DNA of 64,000 bases from Escherichia coli O157:H7 (GTDB lineage: Bacteria > Pseudomonadota > Gammaproteobacteria > Enterobacterales > Enterobacteriaceae). The position numbers were made by a program. Shown here piece by piece: positions 47,901-53,900 of this stretch (the stretch's first letter is position 1; the number at the start of each line of letters is the position of its first letter). The stretch is from NCBI RefSeq assembly GCF_013167455.1, contig NZ_CP038328.1; one strand, written 5' to 3'.

Positions 47901-50900
47901 GCCGAATCCTGGCTGGCCCCCGTGTCCGCACTGAATGTCCCCTCCGCGCCCTGGGTGAATGCAGAACCACCACGACAGCATGGTACCAGCAGGATCCCCG
48001 CGTTATTCGGGATATACGGGAGCAGTTTTTTGGCAATATGTAAGCCCTGGCCGACACAGCCGTACTGCCCTTTGCTCAGGTCTGCCTTCGGATGATTCAG
48101 CGTACTCATATCCTGCACATCATGCAGGCAGTGGTCGGCCGGAATAATATCGTTATATCTGCATGCAGCCCCACCCGGCGTAACTGTACTGCGGCGCGCC
48201 AGCTGTTTAATGCGCGGATCCGGAGCATCGTATGAATCCGGCAGCGGAAGCCCTTCACCGTAAGCCATGGCATTGGACTGCCCGGCCAGTACGATGACGT
48301 AGTACCAATCCGGCTCAGTTGCACCACTGACCACCACATCACCTTCTGCTGTAATCGCCTGCATCAGGGTATAAGGGGTTATGGCCACCGGACTACCAAA
48401 CGGCTGCCAGCCCTCTTTCAGTTTGTGTGTCAGCTTTTCCGCAAGGTCTGACGGCGACGCCGCCCTGACAACATCATAATGTTTAAATGTCATTATTCCT
48501 CCCGGCCGGGATAGTGTATTAAATCAGATATGGAGTGGGCTGTAGTCCGGAAGCCTGAATGACACACGGGGACTACAGCCCAAGAAATGAAAAAAGGCCA
48601 CGCAGTTGCGCAGCCTGATAAACCCTGGTTAAAATCCACACGATAACAACACAACAATATCAGTATCTCATGCTATTGCCCGAACCCATTCGGGCATTTT
48701 TTTACCCATAAAAAATGCCCCTCCGGAGAGGGGCATGTTTGCATGCACATTCTTTTTCTTGCATGGTGCCGGGTGCCTCCCGGTGAATTCAGTATCAGCA
48801 CCTGAATCCGCGATTATCCCATATACCTGGTTGCTGATCGCCCCTCCGCACAGGGGGATTCACCATGCAGAAGTGTTTTTAATAAACAGCAAACAAAAAA
48901 ATCAAGCATTATGCAGGCTGTTTCTTTTTATCACCGGCCACAGCAATACCACAATGCCGCAGACCAGCACCCCATCCGCCAGCACCGACATGATTCTGCT
49001 GGTGAAATCCACCATCACCACCAGAAACAGCAGGAGTGCAGCCACAGCCAGGCGCAGTTTTACCGTCACAGGTGATTCTCCAGACGAAGACCCAGAACAC
49101 CGGCAATCTCTTCCAGCACCTTGCGCTCTTCCGGCTCAATTTCGCCGTCTGCCTCCGCAATGGCCACCGCCACATCCAGCACATCTTCCGCTTCACGCGT
49201 ATCGTGTTTCACATCCTCAATCTCGCGTAACGCGGCACGACGACCAATTTTAAAATTGGTATCCAGCTGACCGATAATGGTTGCGCTAATCGCATTAATT
49301 TCCGAGGTAAACGCAGACAACGCAGGCTGATTACGTAAGACCTGTTCGATCTTCGCTTTCTCGGATGCCTCGCATTCACCATCTGCATAGGCCACCAGGT
49401 ATGCAGCGTTAATCACCGCCTGTGCCAGATCGCGTTTCTCAAACTTTTTAATTTCCGCTGCCGCTCTGCGGGTTTTCTTTTTGAAGATTCCAAACATCGT
49501 GACGTTCCTTTGGGTGGGTGAGCCAACGCCCGGGAGCGATCTGCCCACAGAGAAAGTCACACTGACCACTCCGTAAGCTCACCCCCGAAAGGCTCTGTGG
49601 TTGATATGCGCCGGGCGTGGCGCAGATACAAAAAAGGCCCGCCGAAGCGAGCCTGGAAAATAAGTGTGGCGCGTTGTAGTGGAGTCTAACCACTGACCGA
49701 TTGCTTAGAAGGCAATTGCTCTGTCCGACTGAGCTAACAACGCATGATGCTGATAATGGACCGCCATCGGGGACTTGAACCCCGCGCAGCCAGCTTCGAA
49801 GGCTGGCGCTCTGTCCCGATGAGCTAATAGCGGTATGTAATATGGTGGCCCTTGCTGGATTTGAACCAGCGACCTGGCGATTATGAGTCGCTCGCTCTCA
49901 CCACTGAGCTAAAGGGCCGAGCCAAAAAATAATAATCAGATGAAAATCAATAATCAAGCCCTTGCCTGGATACATATCTGTCTGGCGGGAAGCCATAATA
50001 GCGGTGAAATACAGAAATAAAGTAGGACCTGCTTGAATAACCGCATTTTTCTGCTATAGCCTGTCCATATCCATGCCGGGAACATAACATATTTACAGCA
50101 ACACGCATCCGCTCTTCCAGCAACAAGCGACTGAACATGCCCCCTTCATTTTTCAGTTTTGTCTTTAACAAACTCTCACTCATATGCAACTGTAGAGCAA
50201 TCGCACCAAGCGTCCAGCTTGCTGATATATCTGTCTGAATTATCGCCCTGACTTTGGCACTTATGCTGGATAAACATCCACTTAAAAACAATGACATCCG
50301 TTCATCTGTTTCAAACAGAGACAGGCAGGCCATCATAAGAAACATATCCGTGGCCTCTCCGGAAAATCCCTGGCTGGTAATTAAAGCCGCAGCCAACGCA
50401 GGATTGTTGGGTTCCAGCAACAGGTAAAGCGGAATGTCAGTCAGACGAGTCCTCGTCAGCTTATGCTGACTTTCCAGATATTGACTTACGACGGATTCGC
50501 TGATATCGACAATTTTAACTTTGCCATAATGCATAAGGAAAAGCTCCCTGATGCATTTGGTGGCCAGAACAACTGAGCCTGGCTTAAGTGACAACGTATC
50601 CTTTTCAAGAAAAATATTAATTGGGGAGCAAACCATGATAACTGAACAGACAACAGCCATTATAATTTTACTTTCATTAGCAATTGGTTAGCTCAATTAT
50701 AGCCCCAAAAGGTAAATTATCATCAACACATAAGCAAAGGACTGACAGGTGTCGCCCCCCCACCAGCCGCCCATTCACCACAAATAAAAAGCCTTCAGGA
50801 CTGAAGGCGTCTGTAACAACCGCACTGATAGTCTGCCAGACCCGCCATAACAAGCTGGGTCAGTATTAACTGGCAGCGTTCGCGTGAAAGGTAAGTATTC

Positions 50901-53900
50901 TGCGCAATCTCCCCGACTGTCGCCGGTTCGGTAACGCTTAATTCATCAAACACAACTCTGGCGGTTTCTGTCATATCCTGCTGTTTCAGCATGTCTTTTT
51001 ACCCTTTCCGGTTAACGTGACATACCAATAACTCTTGTCTAAAAAGCCAGCAAGATAAAAAGCCAGTATTCACGACCACCAGCGTGTTTACTGTACTGCA
51101 CCAGGTTTACAGGTACAAAAAAACCGCTCAGCGGCGGGTTTAAGTTGTGTGGCGAAGTAACCACTCTTAACAGCATATTTGATTTTTTACGATTGTAAAC
51201 GGTTGATTATTCATCTCCAATAAAAATAATTGTGTGGGTATGCCCTTAACAATGGATAAGAAACATGAATAAAATGACTGTACTATTACTTAGCGCAACT
51301 ATCATTTCAGGTTGTACTTCTTCCGTACCATTGATAAAGAAAACTCAATCAGGAAAACCTGAGGGGGTTTATCAAAATACGACAAAAGATAAAGTCAAAG
51401 ATGCCCTTGTGAATTACTGCAATAGTAGAGGGTTGATAATTTACAACGCGGATAACAGCAGTGTTATATGTGGTAAAGAACTGGAAGGCGGCTCTGCTGT
51501 TTTTGGACAAATGTTAATCGGCAATGCCTATTCAACAACCCCGGTATCAAAAGTCAGATTTACTATCGCTCAAGTTAATAACGATACAAAAGTGTGGGCC
51601 GATATGTGGATGGAAACTCAAATGGCAATGGGGCAAGTACAACAAATGTCTATAACAGACAACGCAAGCAAAAACACTATCCAACAACGTCTTGATGAAT
51701 TAAAACCTTAAATAAATTAAATAAAATGGGGAGAATAAATCGACTCCCCACACATTAAACTGATTCAATTACCCCCTCAATAAGAGGTCTTCTAACGATC
51801 CATCTCTAGCTCAATTTCTAACATCATTAACATGCCATCAACTACACCTTCAGCCTTTTGCAATAAACGCCCAACCCAGCAATCAGAACGCCCATGTTTA
51901 CGGGCAAGCGCCATAAAAGTCATACCACCTACATAATAATCCACTAATAAATCGTGCAAATCGCTGTTGTTCTTTTTCAGGCGAGCCATGCATCCACAAA
52001 TGATCATCGCGTCATCGTCACAACATTGCGGGCGGGATTTTACTTTTGAAGGGATTAGTCCTTTAAACCCTGCAGCAATAGACGACCAGGTGACATCCTC
52101 GTGATTATTTGCCACCCATGCCCCCCAACGTTCAAGAACCATTTGAATATCACGCATCAACTTTCTCCACAAAATCAGGCCAGCACGCCAATTGCCAGCG
52201 CACGATCGATAAAACGAAATATCAGCTCCAGCTGGGAGCCATACTTCTCTTCAAATGCCACGGTATCCGCATGCAGCTCGTCGTGATGCTTTCTGCACAA
52301 AGGCAACACAAAAAGGTCATGCGCTTTTGTTCCCATTCCACCCTGACCGTGACCTATCAGGTGGTGGGGATCATCAGCGGGCTTTCCACAACATGCACAC
52401 GGCTGTGTCTTAACCCAGCGCGTGTACTTTTCATTAACCCAGCGGCGACGTTTTGGGCGTAACATAAAAGACTCCGGCGACTCCGGATCCACTTTCAGCG
52501 CCAGCACCTTTTTCGCCTTATCCTGGATGATGCTGGTGGCAGGAACCGAAGGCACAAGGTCACTTTCCCGGGTAACAGACGGCACAACAGGCTTCGGTAA
52601 TCTCAGTGCCTTACGGGCTGCACTTTCCGGTAAGGCATCCGCCAGATCATTACGAATCAGCCACCAGCACAGTTCCGGCATTGTCACAACGTGACTGTCA
52701 TCAAAACCGAGATCCCGACGCACAACAGACAACACCCAGCGGGCACAGTTATCCGTTGCCATTGATTCCAGCCGTTCCGTGAACTGATCGCGCAGCTGGT
52801 TATCGCAGTGCCAGCACAGACGGATTGCACCCGGAGCGTGTCGCATTGTGGTCATGTTCTCGCTGTGCCAGTCGGAATGAGGCCACTGGCAGCCTTTTTC
52901 ACGAAGTAACCAGCTTTCAAGACATTCCACGCCACCAGCACGACGGATCACTGCCTCATTGCGGAACACGGCCCGAACGGCAGGATCATCCGCCAGCGGT
53001 TGTGATGCCGCCGGAACGGCACCACTGGCGAAAGATGAATAACGCTCCGGCTCAGGCTCCAGCAGGACACGCCCCTGCATAAACAGGGGCATCAGCTCTG
53101 AACCTGGCCTGAACAATACGATCCCCATACGCGGGGCAATTTCAGGGGTCAGTAGTGCTCTCACGGTCACCTCAATGAACGGTATCGAGCAGCTTTAACA
53201 GCTCAGGGAATCGGGATTCGAAGAAATGCGGCTGCGTCTCGCGCGGATTTGCGGGACTGGTGATGTTCTTGCCGAACATGCAGCCTTTCGCTGTCAGCGA
53301 CCAGAATTTTTTGATGTTGTTAATCGCGGTACGACTGTATCGTTCGCGCTGCTCGACGATCCCCAGTTTCACCATCTGGTGATATGCCTGATTAGCCGTC
53401 AGGCGTATACCATACTGTTTCAGCAGTGCACTCAGTGACAGTGTCGGGCGACTTGAGCCATCGTGTGCATCAGCAGGAGCATCAATGGCATAGCGCGGTG
53501 CCAGATTCGGTAAGCCAACAGCCTCCTGGAGTTTCTGACAGGCACCAAGCACAGATGAGTTAGACAGGTTTAACTCCCGACGCATAAAGTCCAGCAGAAT
53601 CACACCAGCCTGCATCTTGTCAGCAGCCTGTCCGGATAATTTTTCCGGTGCGCTGGTTACCATGTCGAAAGTACGGATCACCTTAAGATGGAATGACGGG
53701 CTTATCCACATTGCATAGGCATACACCAGTTCCTTGCAGACATACGTTCCCCGTTCATTTCCCCCATGAATCACACTCACCGGGTCAACACCCAAATTCT
53801 GGGTGTTGGTCAATTCATGAACAAGTTCAACAGTTTGTTGGCTGGAAAGAAACTTTCCTGGCTCCTTGGTTCTGGCATTTGCACCAGATGCTACTGCTGC

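Follow-up and report, generated by a model that had tools for sequence, protein, structure and literature searches.

In the 64,000-nucleotide stretch of the Escherichia coli O157:H7 contig NZ_CP038328.1 (RefSeq assembly GCF_013167455.1) analyzed here in its entirety and hereafter called the window, the interval between the gene for the antiterminator Q and a block of three tRNA genes contains three protein-coding genes, namely, those for an AraC-like regulator, a protein of 65 amino acids (aa), and a lipoprotein, which an earlier note on this DNA had grouped into a single “moron cluster”. We consider it probable that this interval is, instead, where the Q gene meets the late promoter in a lambdoid prophage that carries effector genes and lies next to dusA, a junction occupied by three independent units: an ortholog of psrB, a 65-aa backbone gene, and a lipoprotein moron. 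The regulator can be connected to published biology, whereas the lipoprotein represents an unannotated family for which we tentatively propose a role in blocking incoming phages.

The three open reading frames (ORFs) lie between Q and the tRNAs exactly where the earlier note had placed them, and they are annotated in near-identical RefSeq records. Along the minus strand of the window, from 52172 down to 49667, the order is Q, the 65-aa ORF, the AraC-like ORF, and the three tRNA genes, the lipoprotein ORF, situated between Q and the 65-aa ORF, being on the plus strand. These genes are also annotated in a RefSeq record that is 99.9% identical, from E. coli UTME-1, a strain from beef; the prophage there adjoins dusA and, besides a complete lambda-like structural module, contains lom, J, nleG7, an espS remnant, and PerC/Pch-like genes. 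The unity of the cluster, however, did not survive a comparison of gene distributions among 5426 complete E. coli genomes, the set over which the genome counts were taken: the lipoprotein cassette (51200-51790) is found in 184 of these (3.4%), the pair of the 65-aa and AraC-like genes, at a query coverage of at least 80%, in 724, and all three genes together with Q and the tRNAs in 18. The part of the claim that stood is that two of the three genes behave as morons. The lipoprotein gene is present in some genomes and absent from others, has a low G+C content (0.36-0.41), and comes with a promoter-like site and a flanking hairpin; the AraC-like gene, likewise poor in G+C (0.42-0.47, compared with 0.52-0.58 in the flanking prophage), gives way to a Dam-type methylase gene in UTI89 and in phage PhiR40_1. 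The 65-aa gene belongs to the backbone. Thus, the earlier observation is confirmed, and its interpretation is partly supported.

Judged by 99% identity and an identical gene order, the AraC-like gene (49947-50660, minus strand, 237 aa) is the ortholog of psrB. The protein shares 234 of its 237 residues with the product of CP008957:1905274-1905987 in the CP-933O/OI-57 prophage of EDL933 (A103V, H196Y, and I202V being the substitutions between the window protein and that of EDL933), and in the resequenced EDL933 genome (CP008957), the CP-933O order of Q-like gene, 65-aa gene, 237-aa AraC-like gene, tRNA-Ile, tRNA-Arg, TerB, DUF3927, and NanS-p esterase is that of the window. Two reviews identify PsrB with z2104 of O-island 57, whose stated coordinates, 1,849,324-1,929,825, span the EDL933 psrB gene. 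PsrB binds the hdeA and gadE promoters and raises acid resistance via the GAD regulon (PMC10877973); together with PsrA, it represses type III secretion, encoded by the enterocyte effacement locus (LEE), through GadE and YhiF (reviews; PMC10877973). The earlier proposal that this regulator is tied to acid-resistance or virulence regulons is, therefore, borne out through the identity of the gene, with the function taken from the reviews, and, the biology of PsrB being already published, the regulator adds little that is new. The presence of nleG7, the espS remnant, and the PerC/Pch-like genes in the same prophage matches the published link between psr genes and effector loci.

The family assignment of the regulator is straightforward. 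Two helix-turn-helix motifs, the hallmark of AraC/XylS proteins, lie within the C-terminal ~100 aa (Pfam HTH_18, 1.1e-9, over residues 155-230; HTH_AraC at 141-173 and 202-224), the protein falls into PHROG 1450, and its relatives in the PDB include GadX, Rns, CsvR, and ToxT, the GadX DNA-binding domain being the closest (7e-19). Although YdeO and GadX head the NCBIfam ranking, identity with YdeO or with GadX itself was rejected: scores of 108.5 bits for NF007407 (YdeO, cut-off 348) and 87 bits for NF007432 (GadX, cut-off 500) are far under the curated NCBIfam cut-offs, so that the protein is a related paralog of both. PatE, which we identify with Sakai ECs_0287, reaches no more than 37% identity and is, accordingly, another distinct paralog. 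A much closer relative, 91.6% identical, is encoded in phiSTEC1575-Stx2k directly 5' of the tRNAs, which are followed there by stx2k. The best-scoring sigma-70-like site of the region (ATGATA-16-TATAAT, 50696-50723, minus strand; 10 of 12 consensus matches) is located ~36 nucleotides (nt) upstream of the psrB ATG. In the lysogen, psrB would be transcribed from this putative promoter at 50723-50696, and upon induction, it would also be read through from a pR'-like promoter under Q antitermination, in the manner of stx in Stx phages.

The product of the 65-aa gene (50795-50992, minus strand, PHROG 331) can be modeled with high confidence as a minimal winged helix, and presumably, it binds DNA. 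The AlphaFold 2 model, built with 21 homologs, shows the canonical topology H1-S1-H2-H3-S2-S3 (helices at residues 4-17, 26-33, and 37-49; strands at 53-56 and 59-62) with a predicted local distance difference test (pLDDT) value of 90.9, and in Foldseek, the winged-helix domains that it matches, at template modeling (TM) scores of 0.7-0.8, are those of OhrR, MarR, and IclR. The name given to this protein by NCBI, “TrmB family transcriptional regulator”, rests on weak similarity of the kind seen in Pfam, where the TrmB (PF01978) match extends over 43 residues only (i-Evalue 0.0031, 17.8 bits). The protein is often annotated as longer (94-106 aa, once as a “lipoprotein”), and the PHROG 331 profile has 111 positions; the longer forms may reflect upstream start calls that run into the leader. 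In the window, the reading frame is closed, so the product has 65 aa.

Within the Enterobacteriaceae, lambdoid prophages of E. coli, Salmonella, Klebsiella, Citrobacter, and Buttiauxella encode homologs with 77-98% identity, and 63 of the 65 residues are common to the window protein and the neighbor of psrB in EDL933. This conservation holds whatever gene comes next, which marks the 65-aa gene as a component of the late-operon backbone rather than a moron: in UTI89, PhiR40_1, and ~40 IMG/VR loci, a 67-aa homolog with 51% identity is followed by a Dam-type methylase gene instead of psrB, and the 65-aa gene region is matched in 2141 E. coli genomes, compared with the 724 that contain the pair. 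The gene would be the first ORF of the late transcript in this phage lineage, following the pR'/tR'-like elements. The same observations bear on the possibility that the 65-aa and AraC-like proteins form one functional pair, with the former acting, for example, as a co-regulator or anti-activator of PsrB, and the two genes making up a single regulatory moron. The genes are indeed adjacent and on the same strand in those 724 genomes, and the adjacency extends to EDL933 and to the Stx2k phage. Nevertheless, besides the association of the 67-aa homolog with a methylase and the far greater number of genomes that match the 65-aa region, the arrangement of signals separates the two: an intrinsic-terminator-like hairpin (50791-50808, minus strand; 7-bp stem and 4-nt loop, with UUUUUAUUU) closes the 65-aa gene, and the promoter-like site of psrB comes just downstream of it. 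A functional pair thus appears quite improbable.

The Q gene itself (51792-52172, minus strand) encodes an antiterminator of the PF06530 type, matching PHROG 79 at 1.5e-51, with PF06530 detected on its homologs. Downstream of it, the window shares with three loci that differ in Q alleles or cargo a block that starts between 51125 and 51199 and continues through the tRNAs. In every compared locus, including L002 and L011, whose cargo differs, a promoter-like site occupies the same place at the start of this block (TTTACA-16-TATGCT, 51172-51199, minus strand, in the window), and the homology to L002, which has another Q C-terminus, ends exactly at 51172. Two terminator-like hairpins with U-runs follow (51135-51123 and 51083-51062, within 51062-51135, minus strand), putative tR'-like leader terminators of the late operon. 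The first of these, a short GC hairpin with a U-run ~45 nt past the promoter-like site, keeps its position in four loci with differing Q alleles, and in L013, the most divergent of the loci, the alignment shows a changed sequence with the structure retained through compensatory substitutions. From this conservation, we infer that the site at 51199-51172 and the hairpin at 51135-51123 are the Q-dependent late promoter and its leader terminator. A 45-aa ORF (51039-51176, minus strand) overlaps the putative late-leader terminators.

The slot between Q and the pR'-like promoter (~51200-51790) is a hot spot of variable cargo. In the window, it is filled by the lipoprotein cassette, whereas strain OkiPb01684 has a WYL-domain protein there (L002:3672-4289, minus strand), the O103:H2 strain 12009 has a 272-aa Rce1/CAAX-protease-like protein of the abortive infection (Abi) type (L011:3564-4382, plus strand), and in other loci, the slot after Q is empty. 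Searches of these alternative cargo proteins against the PADLOC models returned weak WYL matches only for the WYL-domain protein and none for the Rce1-like protein.

The lipoprotein gene (51265-51711, plus strand, 148-aa precursor, PHROG 3152) is preceded by a promoter-like site of its own (TTGATT-16-AATAAT, 51203-51230, plus strand), back to back with the pR'-like promoter. The description of this gene as lying on the opposite strand, convergent and with its own terminator, needs to be amended on two counts: it is convergent with Q only and divergent from the 65-aa and AraC-like genes, and although a hairpin does follow it (51730-51749, where it and Q converge), only the minus strand, that of Q, has the U-tract, the hairpin reaching -17.8 kcal/mol in this context, while ACACAUUAAAC comes after the stem on the plus strand, so that the attribution of a terminator to the lipoprotein gene is only partly right. 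At the start of the precursor, which combines a basic N-terminus with a hydrophobic core, is the signal peptide MNKMTVLLLSATIISG followed by CTSS, with the lipobox IISG-C conforming to [LVI][ASTVI][GAS]C and no Asp at +2, and accordingly, lipidation is predicted. The +2 residue is Thr, which, under the +2 rule, leads one to expect sorting to the outer membrane. Cys17 is invariant in 21 homologs, with Thr, Ala, or Val at +2, and Cys52, Cys69, and the motifs SGKPEG, GNAYSTTP, and KVWADMWxETQMAMGQ are also retained among homologs with 49-72% identity from Salmonella, Jejubacter, Citrobacter, Xenorhabdus, Enterobacter, Phytobacter, and Morganella. The AlphaFold 2 model (pLDDT 85) gives the mature protein of ~131 aa an alpha/beta, KA1/BamC-N-like fold, which resembles Francisella Flpp3 and other envelope lipoproteins.

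Searches of curated families left the lipoprotein without a name. No Pfam family was matched at E<=0.1, Lambda_Bor (PF06291) included, no match was obtained in NCBIfam, and none in the PADLOC defense-system models, which did not match the other two proteins of the interval either; a profile of the family against PDB sequences yielded nothing at E<=0.3 beyond chance-level matches. One homolog bears the UniProt label “Type IV secretion system putative lipoprotein virB7”, which we disregarded: we judge it to be automatic, set off by the lipid-attachment-site signature, in keeping with an LPAM_1 match at no more than chance level here. The family itself is large: a profile search recovered 823 representatives at E<=1e-3, and AlphaFold DB contains relatives with 34-45% identity from Pseudomonas, Acinetobacter, Halomonas, and Microbulbifer. 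Among the 14 long members, 6 are fused to a C-terminal PDZ domain, and one long member contains a BamD/YfiO-like tetratricopeptide repeat (TPR) domain, which suggests that the ancestral bacterial domain functions in envelope protein quality control or assembly.

The genomic context of the lipoprotein gene falls into two distinct patterns. In E. coli, the cassette is always chromosomal, in one or two copies per genome, and, throughout the 184 complete genomes, always convergent and wedged between this Q allele and the pR'-like promoter; by this measure, the PF06530-type Q travels together with the lipoprotein cassette. Among the E. coli-type IMG/VR loci, 49 of 51 likewise have the gene convergent with, and within ~90 bp of, this Q allele. 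The carriers include the uropathogenic E. coli (UPEC) strain UTI89 and poultry, bovine, and human isolates, and the gene is also present in the plaque-forming temperate phages PhiR40_1 and PhiR55_1, the only ones recovered when the lipoprotein was searched with tblastn against 50,697 phage records. Both of these phages served in the infection assays of a 2026 Nature paper on SNIPE. In contrast to the E. coli pattern, the homolog lies within the block from the tape-measure gene to J in 21 of 23 diverged IMG/VR loci (40-70% identity): nine copies are located between gpK and gpI, nine after the tape-measure gene and before gpM, two between gpM and gpL, and one just before a tape-measure gene, one of the remaining two lying in the nin region. 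All tail-module copies are on the strand of the tail genes, and genome look-ups in Salmonella, Jejubacter, and Citrobacter agree with this placement; one further copy resides on a P1-like element. The copy at locus L087 has a textbook promoter and terminator, whereas a simple scan found neither in certain other copies. At least three separate insertion points (K/I, H/M, and M/L) within one block of ~9 kb are unlikely to be the product of chance.

Tail modules often harbor genes that must remain linked to the machinery with which the phage itself enters the cell, as is the case for cor, llp, and HK97 gp15. By analogy, the tail-tip placement lends circumstantial backing to phage exclusion or receptor masking by the lipoprotein, in line with the earlier suggestion of a surface-exclusion protein that blocks an outer-membrane phage receptor. 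A precedent is provided by the mEpimmI phages, where unrelated lipoproteins in the structural cluster were each shown to exclude phages of their own group, the two groups using different receptors, OmpA or LamB (PMC11893012). We propose, tentatively but as a credible possibility, that the lipoprotein either covers a receptor or, within the periplasm, hinders the tail tip or tape measure. Transcribed toward Q from a promoter of its own, the moron in the slot between this Q allele and the pR'-like promoter would supply a protein that counters incoming siphophages at the outer membrane or in the periplasm, either by masking the receptor or by blocking DNA entry at the tail-tip/tape-measure step; as a result, superinfecting phages would be excluded or progeny would be kept from sticking to cell debris. 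Its mode of action would then resemble that of Llp, Cor, or the mEpimmI Lpp proteins, to none of which it is related. A broader version of this proposal, which we put forward with somewhat greater reserve, is that the lipoprotein represents a new, widespread family of outer-membrane lipoproteins, carried by Enterobacterales siphophages, that blocks infection at the tail-tip stage, that is, at the receptor or at tape-measure-mediated DNA entry, and that in the E. coli lineage, the gene was moved to the Q-pR' junction and became prophage-expressed. If true, a block at this stage would explain the repeated independent insertion at K/I, H/M, and M/L.

The exclusion proposal has to be weighed against two others that start from the same lipoprotein. 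One holds that it is a lysogenic-conversion factor akin to Bor, which aids the bacterium in the animal host through serum resistance, adhesion, or envelope robustness and has no effect on phages. Transcription against the late operon from its own promoter within an AT-rich island, as in the case of lambda bor, would fit such a factor, as would the carriage of the gene by UPEC UTI89 and by poultry, bovine, and human isolates and the resemblance of the fold to Francisella Flpp3 and other envelope lipoproteins; however, neither the Bor family of Pfam (PF06291) nor any other matches, and a pure host-fitness role leaves unexplained the 21 of 23 placements between tape measure and J on the tail-gene strand, so that we regard this explanation as unlikely. 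Under the other proposal, which we also find improbable, a bacterial housekeeping domain of the envelope, a partner or modulator of an outer-membrane machine (compare BamC, LpoB, and LptE), has been captured and put to use in lytic growth, for example, in adjusting the envelope before lysis or in aiding tail-tip proteins to cross the periplasm of the next host. The 823 family representatives, the relatives in Pseudomonas and the other three genera, the PDZ fusions in 6 of 14 long members along with the single BamD/YfiO-like TPR fusion, and the co-orientation of the tail-module copies, some of them lacking an obvious promoter, with the late genes are all in keeping with capture. The E. coli copy, on the contrary, lies antisense to the late as well as the early transcripts, with a promoter-like site to itself, an arrangement suited to expression from the prophage, and the lipoprotein is missing from most closely related prophages and, consequently, cannot be required for the lytic cycle.

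Several points weigh against the exclusion proposal and the reading of the locus as a whole. As far as sequence comparison can tell, the lipoprotein is without homology to any characterized exclusion protein. When the J C-termini of the carrier phages were compared for a shared receptor-binding domain, they proved to be 22-79% identical, with some unalignable, and this diversity implies no single receptor. A family with hundreds of members, PDZ and BamD-like fusions, and some representatives in non-enteric bacteria hints at a housekeeping envelope role, and the E. coli copy stands apart from the tail genes. With regard to the regulatory signals, no Q-binding element was identified, and the putative pR' and tR' are consensus matches. 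Finally, the assignment of function to the psrB ortholog relies on reviews and the EDL933 annotation, and the product of the window allele differs from the EDL933 protein at three residues.

The late region beyond the interval adds further detail. The three tRNA genes (49667-49918, minus strand), with the anticodons CAU, Arg-UCG, and Arg-UCU, were recovered by ARAGORN, Rfam, and RefSeq, the CAU tRNA being annotated in RefSeq as tRNA-Ile, that is, of the Ile2/ileZ type; a tRNA block 3' of Q is the usual arrangement in lambdoid phages of the Stx type. An Rfam scan of 49947-51791 detected no RNA family besides tRNAs. On the 3' side of the tRNAs, there follow genes for a TerB-family protein (~49066-49569, minus strand) and a 616-aa SASA/NanS-p sialate O-acetylesterase (~46643-48493, minus strand), the usual cargo of non-Stx prophages of the enterohemorrhagic E. 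coli (EHEC) type at the place where Stx phages carry stx. Between the DUF3927 gene and the esterase gene, just downstream of the tRNAs, two regulatory RNAs are positioned back to back, the prophage anti-small RNA (anti-sRNA) AgvB (48641-48702, plus strand; 96.5 bits, the gathering score being 56) and the sRNA STnc100 (48704-48897, minus strand; 142.7 bits, compared with 47), both strong Rfam matches and further regulatory cargo of the late region. In UTME-1 (L001:12243-14499, corresponding to ~55.8-58.1 kb of the window), IS1203, an element of the IS3 family, interrupts a helix-turn-helix gene of the early region, and the portal gene contains a frameshift; should these disruptions be present in the window as well, the prophage is probably defective, and its cargo genes would act from the lysogen only.

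Of the units described here, the lipoprotein is the useful lead: the family (PHROG 3152) is unannotated, its members occur in two phages amenable to laboratory propagation as well as in 3.4% of the complete E. coli genomes, and the gene context suggests that the protein interacts with either the phage tail tip or the cell envelope. Should the exclusion proposal be correct, this would be a new exclusion family; otherwise, a different role in lysogenic conversion is possible. As for psrB, its alleles travel on prophages with differing Q types and are found in non-O157 isolates from bovine, poultry, and beef sources, which is relevant to acid tolerance and LEE control in Shiga toxin-producing and enteropathogenic E. 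coli.

Several known systems can be set beside the interval. The psrB locus of EDL933 is alike in the 237-aa product, the 65-aa gene upstream, the tRNAs, TerB, DUF3927, and NanS-p downstream, and the setting in an effector-carrying lambdoid prophage, but has a Q of the DUF1133 type in place of the PF06530-type Q of the window, where, in addition, the lipoprotein cassette is inserted after Q. Lambda Bor, a prophage-expressed outer-membrane protein that confers serum resistance, is likewise a lipoprotein moron situated among the late-regulatory and lysis genes of a lambdoid prophage and read in opposition to the late operon, although it differs in size, is encoded after Rz rather than after Q, and belongs to the Pfam family Lambda_Bor, which the window lipoprotein does not match. 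Llp of T5 and Cor of phi80, N15, HK022, and T1 are outer-membrane lipoproteins that inactivate FhuA, and Lpp021 and Lpp010 are the exclusion lipoproteins of the mEpimmI phages. Llp and Cor are about half the size of the mature window lipoprotein. All these proteins are unlike it in that no sequence or fold relationship to it is detectable and that the E. coli gene is located at the Q-pR' junction, outside the tail module; they resemble it in being small, phage-encoded, and equipped with a lipobox and an outer-membrane sorting signal, in the location of its homologs in or beside tail and receptor-binding genes, and in being present or absent among similar phages. With the stx-type cargo of lambdoid Stx phages, finally, the difference is that the window prophage has no stx, the tRNAs being followed by TerB, DUF3927, STnc100/AgvB, and NanS-p, whereas the hot spot is the same, as is best seen in phiSTEC1575-Stx2k, where the order is Q, 65-aa gene, AraC-like gene, tRNAs, and stx2k.

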